A DNA stretch of 42,574 nt from a virus (lineage: Duplodnaviria > Heunggongvirae > Uroviricota > Caudoviricetes): the IMG/VR virus record IMGVR_UViG_2675903468_000002, positions 1 through 42,574 of that record; one strand, given 5' to 3'. Position numbers and translations under genes: made by a program. Under the pieces are notes generated by a model that saw nothing but the letters and a program-made list of their open reading frames with translations, was not told the origin of the DNA and made no database searches. Below are positions 2,606-37,201 of this stretch, in pieces; the first letter of the stretch is position 1, and each line of letters opens with the position of its first letter.

Positions 2606-6007
<3,402 letters not shown>

Positions 6008-16170: not shown

Positions 16171-17787
16171 TTACGGCATACTCATCAGCAGTTCTTCTTC
16201 CCCGTTCCCGGCAGTTCCGCCACCGGAAACGGCACTGGCGGCATGCTGTGCCATGAAGCGCTCAAAAAGTGTTACCTGTGACGGTTGCGATACTGATGGC
16301 GCAGCTGCCAGCAGCGTTTTCGCCTGCTCCACTGTCATTCCAGGTTGTTCAGCCAGCGCCTGTGCCAGTTTTTCGCGTCCTTTTGCTTCCGGCAACGCAA
16401 TAATTTGATCGCCGGTACTTGCCGTACCGGTTGCCGGTGCCGCTACCAGTAGCATTTTCGCCTGTTCCACCGTCATTCCCGGCTGTTCAGCCAGCGCCTG
16501 TGCGAGTTGTTCACGCCCTTTTGCTTCCGGAAGTGCCATAATCTGCTCGCCGGTACTTGCCGCACCGGAAACCGGTGCCGCTGCCAGTAACGTTTTCGCC
16601 TGCTCCACCGTCATTCCCGGCTGTTCAGCCAGCGTCCGTGCCAGTTGTTCACGCCCTTTTGCTTCCAGAAGTGCCATAATCTGATCGCCTGTGCTGTCAG
16701 TACCGGCAACCGGTGCTGCCGCCAGTAATGTTTTTGCCTGCTCAACTGACATTCCCTGCTGACCTGCCAGCATCTGCGCCAGTTTTTCGCGTCCTTTCGC
16801 CTCCTGACAATTCAGGATCCCCATCACGCGCTGATTTTCCTGGGACACCGCTTCAGCAACGGTGAGATTTTTTGTTGTCATCGTATTCTCCTGTGTAACA
16901 GAGTCGTTCAGAGCAGAAACCATTACATCAACGGCATCTGCAGCATTAATCAGTTGATCAGCCAGGCCTATATCAATGCCTGCCTGACCGTCATAAACGG
17001 CAGCCTCGGTATTCATCACCGCCTCTGAACTCAGCCCCGTATAAAGCGCCACCTTGTCGACAAACATCCGGCGGGCCTCATCAATACGGCGCTGAAAATC
17101 CGCACGCACACCTGTCGGCAACGCCTGAATACTGTTGCCGTCAACCTTGTGCTGCCCGGAGTAAATCAGCGTGATATCCACGCCTTCCTGTGCCAGTTGT
17201 TTCTCGTAACTGGTGTGCGCCATCATCACACCAATCGAACCAATTTTTGCCGTCTGCGTGACCAGCCGACGCGTACAGGCCGCCGCCAGCAACATGGCGG
17301 CTGAACAGGCCATGTCATTACACAGCGCCCACACGGGCTTCTGTTCCCGCAGACGGTAAATCATGTCAGCACAGTCAAACGCCCCGGCAGCCTGACCACC
17401 CGGACTGTCGATATCCAGTAAAATGCCGCGTACATCCGGGTCGTTCACCGCTGACTTAAGACGGGCAGTCAGACCGTCATAACCGGTCATACCGGAATAT
17501 GGCCGCAGGGTACCCATTTTATGTACCAACGTGCCGCTCACCGGCAGAATGGCAATACCATTTTTCACCTGGTAACTCTTTACCGGACGCGGACCACCAG
17601 TCATATAATCGGTAACCGCCAGCTGCATACCATCGGCATCAAGCTGAACGGCCTGCTGCGGAACGGCAAGGCTGCCCGCCCCCATCTCCTTACCCAGTGC
17701 GCAAAAGAAAACCCGCGCATAGGCGGGTTCCAGTAAAAGCGGCTCATTAAATGCCATCGCGGCAATATGTGATAAATTACAGCGCAT
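16171..17787 (-). CDS. C: Head maturation protease C with nested scaffold (Nu3-like) region carrying tandem repeats
   Basis: 538 aa; N-terminal HIAAMAFNEPLLLEPAYARVFFCAL and S49-protease region match lambda gpC; C-terminal part has four ~41-aa repeats. Confidence 0.9.
   Translation of the reverse strand: MRCNLSHIAAMAFNEPLLLEPAYARVFFCALGKEMGAGSLAVPQQAVQLDADGMQLAVTDYMTGGPRPVKSYQVKNGIAILPVSGTLVHKMGTLRPYSGMTGYDGLTARLKSAVNDPDVRGILLDIDSPGGQAAGAFDCADMIYRLREQKPVWALCNDMACSAAMLLAAACTRRLVTQTAKIGSIGVMMAHTSYEKQLAQEGVDITLIYSGQHKVDGNSIQALPTGVRADFQRRIDEARRMFVDKVALYTGLSSEAVMNTEAAVYDGQAGIDIGLADQLINAADAVDVMVSALNDSVTQENTMTTKNLTVAEAVSQENQRVMGILNCQEAKGREKLAQMLAGQQGMSVEQAKTLLAAAPVAGTDSTGDQIMALLEAKGREQLARTLAEQPGMTVEQAKTLLAAAPVSGAASTGEQIMALPEAKGREQLAQALAEQPGMTVEQAKMLLVAAPATGTASTGDQIIALPEAKGREKLAQALAEQPGMTVEQAKTLLAAAPSVSQPSQVTLFERFMAQHAASAVSGGGTAGNGEEELLMSMP
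16290..16790 (-). repeat. About four tandem ~123-bp direct repeats inside the C/Nu3 coding region
   Basis: DNA unit gcctgctccaccgtcattcccggctgttcagccagcgcctgtgc...ttttgcttccgg recurs at ~16321, ~16450, ~16573 and ~16696, encoding repeated EAKGREQLAQALAEQPGMTVEQAKTLLAAAP. Confidence 0.7.
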
Positions 17788-30324: not shown

Positions 30325-30581
30325 CAGCGCAGTACCTCCTGCACCAGTTTTTCAAACTTTCCAACTTTGGTTTCCAGCTCTGCCACACAATCCACCAGCT
30401 CATCCACTGCTTTTTGTGCGCGGTGTTTCGCCTGCATCAGTTCCCTGAGCGCTGGCACCATATCCTTACGAATGGCATCTTTTGTTACGCCTGTCTTTTC
30501 CAGTTGTTCCGCCTGTCGTAACATTTCCTGTGCCTGTTTACGTAATTGTTCAGGCGTAAAAGTCATGGTCTGGTTGTTCAA
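30324..30581 (-). CDS. Small helical protein of unknown function
   Basis: 85 aa, charged coiled-coil-like sequence; start overlaps the DnaB stop. Confidence 0.5.
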
Positions 30582-31969
30582 AAGAAACGCTCCATCTTAC
30601 TGCTGTCGGTTCGCTTATTGCTGTATCTGCGCGGCTGGGGCTGCTGCATTGGGGTGGAAAGAATCTGTGCGCTTTCCTGGTCTACGGGCAGAAAATGTCC
30701 GTTATAAAAACGCCGGTAAATCGTCCCCAGAGAACCGTTACGTTGTTTCGTGATATTGATTTCTGCAATGCCTCTGGCCTGCGTATCCGGGTTGTACACT
30801 TCATCCCTGTAAAGCATCAGAATGATGTCTGCATCCGCCTCTATTTCTCCGGAATTTTTCAGGTCTGAGTTCATAGGGCGTTTATTGGGCCTGGACTCCA
30901 CACCACGGGAAAGCTGGCTCAGCGCAATCAACGGAAAACCACCGGATTTTGCCAGGCCTTTAAGCCCCTTTGAGATTTCACCCACGGCAAGGTCATGACG
31001 CCCCGTGGTTCGGGTTTTTATCAGCCCGAGATAATCAACCACCACCAGCGCCGTTTCCGGATGTTTAATCAGGTGATGTTTCGTTGTTGCGCATATCTCA
31101 TCAATGGTCAGGTTCGCCTGGTCCACCATCCAGATATTGCGCCCGGTCATCCGCCCCACTCCTTGTGAGAAACGTGCCCAATCTTCGTCTTCAAAGTGAG
31201 TGACAGATTTCAGGCGTGATACCGGCATTCCTCCAGCCGCAGATACCATGCGTTCACCAATCTGGATGTTCGCCATTTCCATTGTGAACAGAAGAACACC
31301 ATGCCCCTGCTCAGTCACCTTGTCGATGATATCCAGCGCCAGTTCGGTTTTGCCCATTGACGGACGAGCCGCAATAAATACCAGGTCGCCGGGAACCATG
31401 CCACCTGTTTTTGCGTCCAGTTCATCAATACCGGTCATCAACGTCCTGGATTTCTCCAGTCCCTGATTCCGGCATTCAACACGCTCAACCACTTCCGGAA
31501 GCACATCATCAATATGTACCGGCTGAATAGCGCCCTTTTCCGTCGACAATGAGGCCATCATGTTCTGCGCATCCTTCAGAGCATCTTCAGCCGCTTCACA
31601 GGTATGCGCATCACGTAATTTCTGCAGCGCCTCATTCAGCGTTTTTTCTGCATCGCGCAATGCGGCATTGCGCCGCAACGCTGCAACATAGTGCTCCAGT
31701 GAAGACTTCACCCAGGTTTTGCGCCCGGTATCAGTAATCACCGGGGCAAGTTCCGGCATCTCATTACACAACAGCACAGGGTCAATCACGCCTGAAACAC
31801 GGGCCTGTCTGCAGATGCCTGTGTAGATATCCCGATACGCTCGTACAGAAAAAACGTCCGCAGGTAGTGTGGCCAGAATATCCATCACTTCAGGATCTGC
31901 CCCACGCAGAAAGAACGCGCCAATGACAGCGCCTTCCAGGTCATCGTTACGCCAGACTGGTGTTGTCAT
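30578..31969 (-). CDS. Replicative DNA helicase, DnaB family
   Basis: 463 aa; N-terminal DnaB domain, Walker A ARPSMGKTELALD, and RecA-like C-terminal domain. Confidence 0.85.
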   Translation of the reverse strand: MTTPVWRNDDLEGAVIGAFFLRGADPEVMDILATLPADVFSVRAYRDIYTGICRQARVSGVIDPVLLCNEMPELAPVITDTGRKTWVKSSLEHYVAALRRNAALRDAEKTLNEALQKLRDAHTCEAAEDALKDAQNMMASLSTEKGAIQPVHIDDVLPEVVERVECRNQGLEKSRTLMTGIDELDAKTGGMVPGDLVFIAARPSMGKTELALDIIDKVTEQGHGVLLFTMEMANIQIGERMVSAAGGMPVSRLKSVTHFEDEDWARFSQGVGRMTGRNIWMVDQANLTIDEICATTKHHLIKHPETALVVVDYLGLIKTRTTGRHDLAVGEISKGLKGLAKSGGFPLIALSQLSRGVESRPNKRPMNSDLKNSGEIEADADIILMLYRDEVYNPDTQARGIAEINITKQRNGSLGTIYRRFYNGHFLPVDQESAQILSTPMQQPQPRRYSNKRTDSSKMERFF

Positions 31970-32853
31970 GCAGCCACACCTCTGATACGAGAACGGTAGC
32001 TGGGCCAGTTAAACGACAACCAGTTGCGCCCCCCGTCTGTGATCCTGTCGGCAATGCGGGGGCTGATGAACGCCCACAACTCTTCCGGTGAAAGGTTGCT
32101 GATCAGGATGGTGGGCAGGATGCTTTCGTACCGGGCATTGATAATTTCCTGCAAAATAGCCATTTCAGCCGCGCTGCCAAACTGAACGCCGACTTCGTCG
32201 ATGATCAGCAAATCCAATGACGCATAATGCTCAATAACTTCATCCGCTGTTTTTTCGCTGTCATTCCGCCAGCAGTTTTTCACAGCACGGGTAAGGCGCA
32301 TCACATCAGTAATCTCCACACTGGCCAGATGGTTACGGATGATGTGTTTTGCCATAGCCACAGCCAGATGATTTTTTCCGGTACCACAACTGCCTGTCAG
32401 AACAAGACTGGTACCGTTAGCCAGAACATCCTCCCAGCTCTCTGCATAGCGGCGGCAGGCAGCAAGATTTCTGGCTGCATCAGAGTTAATCTCCTGATAG
32501 TTTTCAAACTCACAGTCGCGAAACCTACAGGCAACACCAGCATTCTCAATCAGCACATCAGCTTTCATTGCAACCAGAGTCCGATGTGTCACATCCATTT
32601 CATCCACCAGACACTCCGGACAGCGGGAAATTTTTGAGACAGCGCCCCCCTGCCGATCATCCCACACCAGTATATGCGTACGATATTTACCGTGTTTTTC
32701 GCAGCATCCAACCCCTTCAGATTCCCGGCAGGCGCGGTAAGGCCATGGCTTTTCGCCATTCTGAGCAAATGCAATCTCTGCCCGTAACTCATCCATTCGC
32801 GCCTGTAGTCTTGTTTGTTTCTCACGTTGGTTAATCGTCATCATCGCTGTCAC
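31966..32853 (-). CDS. DnaC/IstB-like AAA+ helicase loader with N-terminal Cys-rich region
   Basis: Walker A GSCGTGKNHLAVA, Walker B LLIIDEVG; Cys cluster CCEKHG...CPEC in N-terminus. Confidence 0.8.
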   Translation of the reverse strand: MTAMMTINQREKQTRLQARMDELRAEIAFAQNGEKPWPYRACRESEGVGCCEKHGKYRTHILVWDDRQGGAVSKISRCPECLVDEMDVTHRTLVAMKADVLIENAGVACRFRDCEFENYQEINSDAARNLAACRRYAESWEDVLANGTSLVLTGSCGTGKNHLAVAMAKHIIRNHLASVEITDVMRLTRAVKNCWRNDSEKTADEVIEHYASLDLLIIDEVGVQFGSAAEMAILQEIINARYESILPTILISNLSPEELWAFISPRIADRITDGGRNWLSFNWPSYRSRIRGVAA

Positions 32854-32854
32854 C

Positions 32855-33847
32855 TCAGAATGTCAGTTTGTCACTGGATTTACCGAATTTGTCAGACATG
32901 GCTCCCAGGCCAGCCAGGACATCGACCTGTCGCTGTCGCCCACCTCCGGGAGCGGCTGGCTGTTGCCAGTAATCTTCGAAGTGACGATCGGGTCCAAAGA
33001 ACGTCGCAGCCTGCTTCACGAACTGTGTGCCGGTATTTCCTGTAGCACGTACCCAGGCGGCATACCGCTTCACACCATCAAGCATGGTCTCCGGTTTTAT
33101 TCCCTCCCTGATACGGGCTTTCCAGGCTTTGAAGGCTGCTGACTTGGAATTACCACCAGCACGTTTGGGATATTCCTGCCAGGCCTGTTCAAATTCCGGT
33201 GAATATTCCTGTCGGGCAGAACGCGCTGGTGCAGACGCGTCAGCGGATGCTCCAATAGTGTTTTTAGTCTCCGTTGTAATCTCTGTAGTAATCTCTGTAT
33301 TTGTATCAACATTCGGCGTATCCCCTGTTCCGTTATGACGTTGGGGGGTGTTCCGTTTTAACGTAATAGCTGTATCGCTGATTGAGTTATTGCTGTTACT
33401 TTCTGGCGAAACAGAAGAAGGTGTGGTGATGGCAGCAATTGCCTGTGGGTTGATCCCGACAAACAAAATATTGCTGCATTTCACCCCGTCTAGCATTTCC
33501 ACCGTACGTAAATCCAGAGTAATAAACCCAGCATCACGAAGACGCTTCAGCGCATCTGCGGTTTCCCTTTTCCCAAAGCCAAACTGTTCAGCAAACGCCT
33601 GATAGCTTCTTTGCAGCTTGTCACCCTGAAAACGCTTGCGATATCCCAGTAAAGCCCCGGTATGCTCATCCCTGACTTCTGTCGGGCGGTACCAGTAAAC
33701 AATCTCTGAAAGCAGCGCAATGGCAGTCGCATCCGGACGACCACTTGGTAGCCGAATATGTTTCCACCAGTTCGCTGGTGTGACATTGCCAGAAATATTG
33801 AGTTGGCCAATAGCCATAACTTCAGGTGTAGGAGCGTAACGGCTCAC
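32855..33847 (-). CDS. Replication initiator (lambda O-like organiser) with internal ori-like repeats
   Basis: 330 aa; GTG start with GGAGG RBS; low-complexity linker TNTEITTEITTETK encoded by DNA direct repeats; position upstream of the helicase loader. Confidence 0.6.
   Translation of the reverse strand: MSRYAPTPEVMAIGQLNISGNVTPANWWKHIRLPSGRPDATAIALLSEIVYWYRPTEVRDEHTGALLGYRKRFQGDKLQRSYQAFAEQFGFGKRETADALKRLRDAGFITLDLRTVEMLDGVKCSNILFVGINPQAIAAITTPSSVSPESNSNNSISDTAITLKRNTPQRHNGTGDTPNVDTNTEITTEITTETKNTIGASADASAPARSARQEYSPEFEQAWQEYPKRAGGNSKSAAFKAWKARIREGIKPETMLDGVKRYAAWVRATGNTGTQFVKQAATFFGPDRHFEDYWQQPAAPGGGRQRQVDVLAGLGAMSDKFGKSSDKLTF
33266..33360. repeat. Iteron-like direct repeats (candidate origin of replication) inside the initiator gene
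   Basis: Tandem GTAATCTCTGTA x2 (33276-33299) with flanking partial copies, plus TGTTCCGTT repeated at ~33326 and ~33349. Confidence 0.4.
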
Positions 33848-34068
33848 ACGGCACCTCCCAGACGCTTAAACATTTTTCCAGACAGAAATACCGCCAGCGG
33901 GTAACTGATGGTGTAGCTACGCCCCTGTAGTTCGCACACGACTTTCTGGCTTTCAGCGTTGACTAGGCAAACCCGCAGAACGTGACCGTTGCTGGTGGCG
34001 AACCACTGCCCCACACGGGGGCAACGGTTGTATCGGTGATACAGGGAATTAACGATGCGGCGAATCAT
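33844..34068 (-). CDS. Small hypothetical protein
   Basis: 74 aa with strong AGGAGG RBS; function unknown. Confidence 0.5.
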   Translation of the reverse strand: MIRRIVNSLYHRYNRCPRVGQWFATSNGHVLRVCLVNAESQKVVCELQGRSYTISYPLAVFLSGKMFKRLGGAV

Positions 34069-34616
34069 GGGTGCGCCTCCTTGTCAGAACCATTAAGTCT
34101 GGAATCAACAAGTGCAGCGCCAAAAACAGCATCTCCTACACGGTCATACAGCTTGCTCGCCAGCGGAGATTCAACGGCCTTAAGCATGGGGTAAAGCTGG
34201 CTTTTCCAGATTTGATGGATTTCACGCAAATGCAGGTATACGCCTCTGGCGTTTCGTGCAACAGCTGACATATCAACCGCGTCAGCACCAGATAAATTCT
34301 TCTCCATCTGGTTAAAGGCGTTGATGTATGCCTCTTTGAACCGGGCTGCACGTTTGCCAGTAAAGCCCATTGCCAGGAACGCGAAGCCATCGCGGGTGAT
34401 TTGATAGCAAGGTAGTTTGCGGCCTGTGCAATCGGTGTAATCACTCACCGAAAAATTGCGGGCAGTGAATGATGCGGAGCATTCAAGCGTGCGGATCTTT
34501 TTCAGTACATCGTCATGACGTTTGGAGAAGAAGTTGGCAACAGCCAGGGATGAAGTAACAGCCTGACCATCAACGATGGCAATTTCAGGTTGAGTGAGGG
34601 TTGGGATCGTAGCCAT
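34065..34616 (-). CDS. Rha-family phage regulatory protein
   Basis: Start MATIPTLTQPEIAIVDGQAVTSSLAVANFFSKRHDDVLKKIR with AAGAGG RBS; Rha-type domain. The ORF-track extension to 34937 starts with TTG and contains a terminator, so it is not used. Confidence 0.7.
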   Translation of the reverse strand: MATIPTLTQPEIAIVDGQAVTSSLAVANFFSKRHDDVLKKIRTLECSASFTARNFSVSDYTDCTGRKLPCYQITRDGFAFLAMGFTGKRAARFKEAYINAFNQMEKNLSGADAVDMSAVARNARGVYLHLREIHQIWKSQLYPMLKAVESPLASKLYDRVGDAVFGAALVDSRLNGSDKEAHP

Positions 34617-36511: not shown

Positions 36512-37201
36512 ATGAAGAACGTCAAAAACACGGAAAATCGAATAGCCGCGATGCTGAAAGCAAAAGGATGGACTCAGGCTCAACTGGCCCGCAAGTTAGG
36601 TGTGAGTGCGCAATCAGTGCAGTACTGGACAACAGGAAAAACATTTCCACGGAGTGATAAGCTCGCGCATTTATCAGAGATTAGCGGTTATCCACAATCC
36701 TGGTTCTTAGGTGAAGACTCCTCACCAACCTTTTCCTCGCAAGAGAAACACCAGACAAGAACAGATAGCGTCGTGTTTAATGTCCTTGATGTTGAGTTTA
36801 GTTGCGGTGATGGAACTCATGTCCGTGGTGACTTGATAGATGTAGTGCGCTCAATAGAACTTGATCCTGAATATGCCCGACGTCTTGTTGGAAATCGGGC
36901 ATTCAAAAATATAGAAATAGGTAACGCCAGAGGAGACAGTATGGCTCCCACAATCTCACCTGGCGACCTTCTTTTTCTTGATAAGACAGTAACTTATTTT
37001 GATGGCGATGGTATTTATGCATTTTGTTTTGATGGAGAATGCTACGTGAAAAGGCTTCAAAAAATTGGAAGCAAAATCATGGTGTTATCTGATAACCCCA
37101 ATTATCAACCATGGAGCATCGAAAAAGAGGGGTTAGCTCTGCTTTATATCCAGTCTAAAGTGATCTCATCAGTACCATTCAACATAAACAGATTTGGTTA
37201 G
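36512..37201 (+). CDS. cI: CI-type prophage repressor (HTH plus LexA-like S24 autopeptidase domain)
   Basis: 229 aa; HTH GWTQAQLARKLGVSAQSVQYWTTGK; C-terminal S24 domain with GDSMAPTISPGDLLFLDK and downstream Lys. Confidence 0.85.
   Translation: MKNVKNTENRIAAMLKAKGWTQAQLARKLGVSAQSVQYWTTGKTFPRSDKLAHLSEISGYPQSWFLGEDSSPTFSSQEKHQTRTDSVVFNVLDVEFSCGDGTHVRGDLIDVVRSIELDPEYARRLVGNRAFKNIEIGNARGDSMAPTISPGDLLFLDKTVTYFDGDGIYAFCFDGECYVKRLQKIGSKIMVLSDNPNYQPWSIEKEGLALLYIQSKVISSVPFNINRFG

Follow-up and report, generated by a model that had tools for sequence, protein, structure and literature searches.

Where does replication of a common Escherichia coli prophage type begin, and which DNA does its initiator recognize? 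The question is raised by a cluster of direct repeats inside the replication initiator gene (32855-33847, minus strand) of a Caudoviricetes virus, IMG/VR record IMGVR_UViG_2675903468_000002, whose whole analysed stretch of 42,574 nucleotides is referred to below as the window. A preliminary description of the window had taken these repeats for iterons and for a candidate origin. Comparison with close alleles, mosaic relatives, and distant homologues makes it likely that positions 33260-33370 form the core of a theta-type replication origin of the prophage, embedded in the linker-coding part of the initiator gene. We infer origin activity, together with binding, unwinding, and recruitment, from the sequence anatomy, from conservation at the level of DNA and of position, from the co-inheritance of the N-terminal domain with the iterons, and from the N-domain fold.

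Two types of repeats are located within the linker, in the stretch of the initiator open reading frame (ORF) encoding ...NTEITTEITTET..., just where they had been described. The perfect tandem 12-mer is confirmed: GTAATCTCTGTA occupies 33276-33287 and 33288-33299 on the plus strand, occurs exactly twice in the whole window, and belongs to a period-12 array of 2.7 copies with 90% matches (33268-33299, Tandem Repeats Finder, TRF). The repeat reported nearby, TGTTCCGTT, is likewise present exactly twice in the window, at 33326 and 33349, and extends to the 16-mers TGTTCCGTTATGACGT and TGTTCCGTTTTAACGT (33326-33364; identity of 88%, spacing of 23 bp). No other copies of either motif are found in the 42.6-kb window, the sole further match having three mismatches, which corresponds to chance level. 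A tandem as long as the 12-mer pair appears in 0 of 1000 codon-order shuffles of the initiator gene, and a 14/16 direct repeat at a spacing of 13-40 bp in 5 of 1000. The conserved block is slightly larger (approximately 33260-33370) than the interval first proposed, 33266-33360. The elements of this block are listed below; the scores of the iterons come from a position weight matrix (PWM) for which the terminal iterons found in distant relatives were used.

33260-33370: candidate origin core as a whole, with low DNA-level variability among 20 alleles
33342-33364, coding strand: likely iteron 1, ACGTTAAAACGGAACACCCCCCA, with the imperfect dyad core ACGTT-AA-AACGG; PWM score of 12.0 bits
33320-33341, coding strand: likely iteron 2, ACGTCATAACGGAACAGGGGAT, 23 bp from iteron 1; PWM score of 8.1 bits
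33299-33319, coding strand: likely degenerate iteron 3 with the conserved junction, ACGCCGAATGTTGATACAAAT, in phase, 22 bp from iteron 2, and abutting the 12-mers; PWM score of 5.2 bits
33263-33298, coding strand: 12-mer block, composed of ACAGAGATTACT (33287-33298), ACAGAGATTACA (33275-33286), and the degenerate ACGGAGACTAAA (33263-33274), encoding TEIT-TEIT-TETK
33274-33313: least stable 40-bp duplex of the initiator gene by nearest-neighbour free energy, AATGTTGATACAAATACAGAGATTACTACAGAGATTACAA, corresponding to the junction and the 12-mers

The repeats (33263-33364) encode residues ~162-195 of 330, between the parts coding for the N- and C-terminal domains: the N-domain model ends at residue ~140 and the C-domain common to other phages starts at residue ~165-200. 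At the junction the window reads GATACAAAT and then ACAGAGATTACT, ACAGAGATTACA, and ACGGAGACTAAA, i.e., an in-frame tandem right after ..GACaAAT and downstream of the iterons. This block is the local instance of a conserved motif, ACARAGAWTACT. The 23-bp-spaced units containing TGTTCCGTT (two strong and one degenerate) are likely to be initiator-specific iterons. Iteron 1 is homologous to the Xenorhabdus iteron TTACGTTGAAACGTAATAGGGG, and the degenerate iteron 3 agrees with the terminal Xenorhabdus iteron TACGTTGAAACGTAAGACAAAT at 15/22 positions (hand count). Each iteron of the window has an imperfect dyad core (ACGTT-AA-AACGG), which would suit the binding of a dimer. The window displays two clear iterons and a degenerate third, where relatives have 3-5 clear copies. 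On the plus strand, an antisense ORF of 103 residues (33027-33338) reads the 12-mers as a hydrophobic VISVVISV; it was taken as a mechanical ORF rather than a gene, the 12-mer flanks being unrelated between family members.

Is this part of the gene conserved as DNA? Among 20 distinct alleles of 993 nt from IMG/VR, gene nucleotides 478-588 (33260-33370 of the window) vary at 4 of 111 sites and at 1 of 37 third-codon positions, compared to 52/140 third-codon positions in the N-domain and 37/117 in the C-domain (~35%). The low-complexity stretch that codes for the linker is the most conserved DNA of the initiator gene. Nucleotides 526-570 contain no variable site in this set, and a further relative with a 984-nt allele (L019) has a C-to-T change there; the copy number of the 12-mer ranges from one to three among close relatives. 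Judged by these substitution patterns, purifying selection acts on the DNA of 33260-33370 as a block. Conservation of synonymous sites, arrays at the same position in relatives, and joint inheritance of N-domain and repeats constitute comparative evidence that points to the linker-coding stretch as a cis-acting DNA element. To this extent the earlier candidate-origin proposal is supported.

The question then arises whether the 12-mer is maintained for the DNA or for the peptide it encodes. The peptide motif T[EK][INT]T is present in 102 of 132 full-length representatives of the family and in tandem in 63 of them, as opposed to 8 and 0 in shuffled sequences. In a codon test, the protein sequence served to define the motif (T-[EK]-x-T within the linker zone), which gave 118 instances from 90 loci. 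The first threonine is encoded by ACA in 110/118 instances (background of 40%) and the last by ACT in 70/118 (19%), while glutamate is encoded by GAG in 72/78 (41%) and lysine by AAG in 39/40 (36%). Fisher p values for this bias range from 1e-16 to 1e-32; as the loci compared in this work are not phylogenetically independent, such values overstate significance, but the effect sizes are large and hold across phyla. Repeats with a period of 10, 11, or 13 nt place copies of the 12-mer in other reading frames (e.g., TETT followed by QRLP in Vibrio phage X29 and in a Chloroflexia locus, or ...NRDY in many Lachnospiraceae), and out-of-frame matches amount to 17 versus 3.8 expected. The exact 24-mer ACAGAGAWTACTACAGAGAWTACT is found in at least 120 IMG/VR stretches and the 12-mer array in 69 plasmid records. 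The fixed synonymous codons, the survival of frame changes, and the stand-alone occurrence of the array together indicate that the 12-mers are constrained as nucleic acid rather than as peptide.

A stand-alone array is carried by the 8.4-kb Bacillus plasmid pBSG3 (NC_014104, L299 ~700-850), in which three iterons resembling those of phage PM1, CCTACAGGGAAAGA, are accompanied by three ACAGAGATTACT repeats outside any initiator ORF. The sole ORF at this array encodes 63 residues and uses another frame. The array could be a captured phage origin that serves as a decoy or as a means of hitch-hiking on the phage.

The same anatomy recurs in distant homologues. N-domains with 40-54% identity are encoded by phages of Acinetobacter, Geobacillus, Bacillus, Exiguobacterium, Staphylococcus, and Eggerthella. 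In nine of the phage homologues, from hosts other than Staphylococcus, direct repeats are located right behind the N-domain, and tandem 12-mers, ACAGAGAWTACT, adjoin them directly. Each phage has its own repeat unit of ~22-23 bp, present in 2-4 copies and weak in Eggerthella. A more distant sample comprises 80 loci from one-genome-per-species contigs, including Xenorhabdus, Morganella, Thermoanaerobacterium, Syntrophomonas, Microcoleus, Atribacterota, Anaerolineae, Armatimonadota, Herpetosiphon, Lachnospiraceae, and others. In 72 of these loci, the coding strand has the 12-mer (10 or more of 12 positions matching) within 350 nt after the N-domain, with 138 matches in ~28 kb behind N-domains versus 60 in ~508 kb elsewhere. 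Within 100 nt upstream of the 12-mers, the best repeat period is 22 in 45 of 68 loci and 23 in 12, whereas a control segment from the N-domain of the same 68 loci has no preferred period; autocorrelation reaches 0.5 in 41/68 loci and in 0/68 controls. The family consensus at the junction is ..aC....aAa.G..aGACaAAT, followed by ACAGAGA.TACt and ACAgAGA.TACt. The 22-23 bp units differ between lineages, while the 12-mers are nearly identical everywhere, from phylum to phylum and over GC contents between 30% and 63%. The closest homologue outside E. coli, from Morganella morganii (CP173058, L093, 1501-1980; 67% identity), is cut short by a stop codon just behind its first iteron, ATTACGTTTAAACGACTTTAA, with unrelated sequence thereafter; it seems to be a copy that has decayed or been interrupted.

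The pairing of the N-domain with its repeats is best seen in mosaics. Three E. coli phage types have a common C-terminal half (93-98% DNA identity), while the N-domain and the repeats are private to each of them: ACGTYAWAACGGAAC in the window, the GGTTTCCC type in Shiga toxin (Stx1/Stx2) phages, and CAGATTCTGAAGGGTCAAA in phiP27. Homology breaks off sharply at 33298/9 of the window in the Stx type and at ~33257 in the phiP27 type (compared stretches L001 2501-2944 and L003 2501-2903). As far as these alignments reveal, the N-domain and the 22-23 bp repeats are inherited jointly, which is the classical iteron signature. The 12-mers go with the C-domain in these mosaics, not with the N-domain. 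The preliminary description had regarded the 12-mers as the iterons; they are probably not initiator-specific sites, as the same 12-mer accompanies quite different iterons in relatives across phyla and is also common (93-95% DNA identity) to Stx-phage genes with another N-domain and other iterons. BLASTP sorts the C-terminal domains found downstream of 12-mers into 27 clusters, of which 11 have two or more members; the domains include Phg_2220_C, DnaB_2 (DnaD-like), DUF6017, and several kinds without a Pfam model.

Three N-domain types (33428-33847 and the homologues A1, A3, and A4) have in common a ..I.YW.. helix and a winged helix-turn-helix. They are variously annotated as DnaD, GntR, 'O-like', or hypothetical, and none has a Pfam or NCBIfam model. 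The types cannot be detected from one another by BLASTP, but profile-profile comparison (hhalign) identifies them as remote homologues with a probability of 84-91%; an earlier conclusion that they are unrelated, and the 12-mers thus independent of the N-domain, was withdrawn for this reason. The 12-mers have so far been seen within one N-domain superfamily only, that of the YW-helix and winged helix-turn-helix.

Two groups of relatives deserve a separate mention. Gene L17 of phiP27 (NC_003356, L003 2900-3090), with an HTH_36-type N-domain, contains two repeat classes of its own, five units of the CAGATTCTGAAGGGTCAAA type and 2-3 units of CTTGCGGATCATGTTTT. 'P27' has been described as having a lambda-like O protein and six lambda-type iterons (PMC7466680), a description at odds with L17 of NC_003356, so that either the phage or its replication module differs. 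In the Bacillus phage phIS3501 group (L011/L192-type loci), the N-domain, iterons, and 12-mers are combined with a C-domain that resembles, by eye, the C-terminus of lambda O (..FEKWANEFR.IRERD...SPSKLRKQWDRL); should the resemblance be real, the lambda O family would lie within the reach of module exchange.

What could the 12-mers do, if they are not specificity sites? The 12-mer block lies directly downstream of the iterons in the orientation of the gene, in an easily melted region, and the GC content of 0.367 at 33260-33319 is the minimum of the gene (60-nt profile). In relatives with a gene GC content of at least 0.46, the block ranks among the least stable 0.3-6% of windows. As the 12-mers coincide with the least stable 40-mer, they are probably an unwinding and helicase-loading element rather than specificity iterons. 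Their conservation in AT-rich genomes indicates that easy melting alone is insufficient as an explanation, and an additional sequence-specific role is likely. By analogy with the 13-mers and DnaA-trios of oriC, a conserved surface of the initiator may bind the 12-mers, possibly as single strands. RNA or single-stranded DNA structure in the core was also considered and rejected, since the core folds no better than shuffled sequences (z of -0.34), as was an internal promoter in the 12-mers, no sigma-70-like site being found in 32800-34100.

The initiation might then proceed as follows. Dimers of the N-terminal winged helix would bind the dyad cores (ACGTY-NN-AACGG) of the two strong iterons and the degenerate one, which the spacing of 22-23 bp, about two helical turns, would place on one face of the DNA. 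The resulting nucleoprotein complex would stress the adjoining block of ACAGAGATTACT repeats, and this block would open because it is the least stable duplex of the gene and is unstructured as a single strand. The C-terminal domain would finally bring the DnaC-like loader and the DnaB-like helicase encoded immediately downstream. A further-reaching proposal, for which we see somewhat less than an even case, is that tandem ACARAGAWTACT with the ..GACAAAT junction constitutes a previously undescribed sequence-specific origin element, a signal for single-strand capture or helicase loading that is also a universal joint at which N-domain/iteron modules, which set specificity, and C-domain modules, which adapt the phage to its host, recombine. 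The scope of such an element may extend to a very large superfamily of initiator genes in phages, prophages, and plasmids of Proteobacteria, Firmicutes, Actinobacteria, Chloroflexi, Cyanobacteria, and others. A literature search for the 12-mer or for the TEITTE/TENTTE peptide returned unrelated matches only; its coverage is incomplete, and an earlier description in subscription journals is possible.

Several observations weigh against an origin at this site. Good iterons number just two in the window, the autocorrelation at 23 bp is weak, its value of 0.42 being tied with that of a 15-bp period, and the iteron array is weaker than in most relatives. In lambda, two iterons and the AT-rich region are given as the minimum for unwinding and for replication in vitro (PMC7466680, citing Dodson 1986 and Wickner & McKenney 1987), so the low number of iterons should be no obstacle here. 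In AT-rich hosts (30-33% GC), the 12-mer block is not a stability minimum. A family-wide iteron PWM, low in information, gave equal match counts in all three N-domain types, and as it did not separate the N-domain families, the pairing of N-domain and iterons rests on the E. coli mosaics and on analogy. PhiP27 carries the same C-domain without the 12-mers; at their position, an AT-rich stretch contains another short repeat, AAAACATGATCCGCAAG. Finally, no experimental evidence of replication, binding, or unwinding was found for the phage or for any member of the family.

Other explanations of the repeats have to be considered beside an origin with iterons and an unwinding element. The 12-mers could themselves be bound by the initiator, e.g., through a surface conserved in the N-domain superfamily, in double-stranded or in single-stranded form and in the manner of DnaA-ATP on 13-mers and DnaA-trios. 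Their restriction so far to N-domains joined by remote homology (84-91% in hhalign), their conservation in AT-rich hosts, where easy melting is no explanation, and the fixed junction at which the tandem directly abuts the last iteron agree with this possibility. It is nevertheless rather unlikely, as the same 12-mers stand beside very different iterons and N-domain types and move with the C-domain rather than the N-domain in the E. coli mosaics; besides, with a period of 12 bp, successive sites come to lie on different sides of the helix, and the winged helix would by analogy to RepA_N and lambda O bind the longer, dyad-containing repeats. A second explanation would see the block kept mainly as a recombination joint between N-domain/iteron and C-terminal modules, with no role in initiation. 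Breakpoints of E. coli mosaics do lie exactly at its edge (33298/9), and it separates variable N-domains from at least 27 BLASTP clusters of C-domains, but an element conserved for its function can be expected to become a site of recombination as a by-product. Selection that acts on evolvability is weak and would not, on its own, keep synonymous sites fixed in a lineage or preserve the junction to the last iteron, and pBSG3 retains the block together with the iterons, all of which renders this explanation improbable.

An even smaller probability is assigned to the iterons serving, in the manner of operators, to autoregulate or titrate the initiator, with the true origin elsewhere in the phage. 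There are precedents, as plasmid iterons also act in copy-number control and autorepression and SPP1 possesses a second origin outside gene 38 (PMC6316719); in the 42.6-kb window, however, which may not hold the whole prophage, there is no other motif copy or comparable iteron array, and 32800-34100 contains no promoter-like site. Hardly credible, in turn, is the absence of any cis function, according to which a slippage-prone, low-complexity (TEIT)n linker would produce the repeats, together with chance similarity. The low complexity of the peptide and the variation between one and three copies among close relatives are what slippage would give, but third-codon positions vary at 1/37 sites as opposed to ~35% in the domains on either side, the choice of synonymous codons is fixed across phyla, and the motif is kept in other frames. 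The 12-mers found outside an initiator ORF on pBSG3 and the shuffle statistics are equally opposed to chance.

The gene that contains the candidate origin and its neighbours are the following.

32855-33847, minus strand: replication initiator gene, 330 residues, GTG start; PHROG 270 'replication initiation protein' (E-value of 8.7e-79)
33428-33847, minus strand: N-terminal domain, residues 1-140, with a helix carrying a conserved Tyr-Trp pair, a beta-hairpin, and a winged helix-turn-helix
32858-33247, minus strand: C-terminal domain, residues ~201-330; PHROG 1701 'DnaD-like helicase loader' and others
31966-32853, minus strand: DnaC/IstB-like helicase loader gene, directly downstream of the initiator gene; Pfam IstB_IS21 (1.2e-15), PHROG 50 (5.8e-84)
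30578-31969, minus strand: DnaB-like replicative helicase gene; Pfam DnaB_C (2.5e-72), PHROG 19 (3e-117)

The initiator is composed of an N-terminal DNA-binding domain, a linker whose coding sequence carries the candidate origin, and a C-terminal domain. The N-terminal domain, with its winged helix-turn-helix at residues 82-132 (33452-33604), is presumed to bind the iterons, and the C-terminal domain, a module that phages exchange, is presumed to recruit the loader and the helicase. A small ORF, a Rha/Ash regulator, and an antirepressor precede the gene. RefSeq annotates the same initiator coordinates in a 99.9% identical E. coli prophage, in which the initiator, DnaC-like, and DnaB-like genes belong to a lambdoid early-right operon; RusA and Q follow further downstream. 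A full-length initiator gene is present in ~220 of 5,426 complete E. coli genomes.

The protein had been termed O-like, which is appropriate for its role. It has no match in Pfam at E-values up to 0.01 (at E-values up to 10, only HTH_36 with 0.051), Phage_rep_O included, and none in NCBIfam, so that it is O-like in role only; PHROG 'O-like' families are matched weakly (1.5e-6). Pfam RepA_N (PF06970) is not matched even at E-values up to 10. A sequence search of the PDB gave no match, and at the sequence level no solved structure or curated family is linked to the N-domain or to the whole protein. The N-domain fold is nearest to the N-domains of RepA_N and DnaD and includes the N-terminal winged helix of that fold; Foldseek searches against the PDB returned weak winged-helix matches only. 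The N-domain family is large, with 1,954 representatives of 50%-identity clusters at E-values up to 1e-10, and the N-domain of the window is 40-67% identical to phage and prophage homologues.

How does this locus compare to known origins? Its layout, i.e., initiator-specific repeats followed by a low-stability block in the initiator gene, upstream of the loader and helicase genes, conforms to the likeness to lambda ori noted at the outset. In lambda as well as in Stx phages and other lambdoid origins, the origin is located in the middle of gene O, between the parts coding for the DNA-binding N-domain and the loader-recruiting C-domain (PMC5043065, PMC7466680). Behind a dyad-containing iteron array, in the direction of transcription, comes a region that melts easily; the N-domain together with the iterons makes up a single specificity unit, swapped between phages, and the loader and helicase genes adjoin in a lambdoid early-right operon. 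The window protein nevertheless lies outside the O family. Lambda has four iterons of 19 bp, as compared to 2-3 of 22-23 bp here, and the place of its AT-rich region is taken here by a 12-mer repeat conserved in sequence. Moreover, the prophage encodes its own DnaB-like helicase and DnaC-like loader, whereas the lambda P protein hijacks the DnaB of the host.

RepA_N initiators, of which pSK41 Rep is an example, bind to four Rep boxes central in their own gene; their ori-encoded linker is dispensable, their C-domain is exchangeable, and mosaics that swap the N-domain together with ori are known (PMC5703833). The window locus has the same architecture, with central initiator-binding repeats (predicted here), an ori-encoded linker, and a similar N-domain fold. 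It differs in the missing Pfam RepA_N match and in its phage context with loader and helicase genes, and RepA_N C-domains bind DnaG. OriL of SPP1, located in gene 38, is also alike: the gene of the origin-binding protein G38P contains direct repeats along with an unwinding element rich in AT and is followed by the genes of a loader (G39P) and a DnaB-type helicase (G40P) (PMC6316719). The unwinding element is downstream of the repeats, as is the AT-rich region of lambda (PMC5043065, PMC6316719). By eye, the Phg_2220_C C-domain of some relatives (e.g., Xenorhabdus homologues) includes the ...YLRP.TLF... stretch of the G38P C-terminus. However, G38P and the window protein are not detectably similar (best BLASTP E-value of 1.5), the direct repeats and AT-rich repeats have other sequences, and gene 38 is devoid of a ACARAGAWTACT array. 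The 13-mers and DnaA-trios of E. coli oriC provide the best functional analogy for the 12-mers, if a purely inferential one: they, too, are a second class of short tandem repeats beside the initiator sites, whose exact sequence matters beyond AT content (PMC5043065). The initiator has no AAA+ domain here, and the repeat sequence is different.

The kind of system is well known, an origin in an initiator gene that consists of iterons and an unwinding element, as in lambda, SPP1, and RepA_N plasmids. On sequence grounds, the locus represents a new case, within a family of initiators that is uncharacterised, and does not belong to lambda O, RepA_N, or G38P. The conserved 12-mer element may be the new part.

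Other repeats are present in the window. A direct repeat with an operator-like look, TTRTTTTGATGGMGA (36994-37038, spacing of 30 bp), was rejected as an operator, being located inside the ORF 36512-37201, in which it encodes a repeated FDG motif. A large tandem repeat at 16304-16804 (3.6 copies of a 138-bp unit, 84% identity) is far from the replication module, and short tandem arrays occupy 842-888 and 3037-3080 (21 bp in 2.2 copies and 19 bp in 2.3 copies, respectively). No second origin or array comparable to the iterons is found in the 42.6-kb window, which may not comprise the entire prophage.

A probable replication origin and the probable specificity unit of its initiator are located here for a common E. 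coli prophage type, and the origin reading also explains the breakpoints of mosaics among Stx-phage relatives. In a large initiator family (~2,000 clusters at 50% identity) for which Pfam and NCBIfam have no model, a nearly invariant 12-bp repeat stands beside fast-evolving iterons. If the 12-mer is a sequence-specific signal for unwinding or loading, it would provide a simple marker for phage and plasmid origins in metagenomes, a tractable system for the opening of DNA by winged-helix initiators without an AAA+ domain, and a mechanistic reason for the modular exchange of initiator domains.

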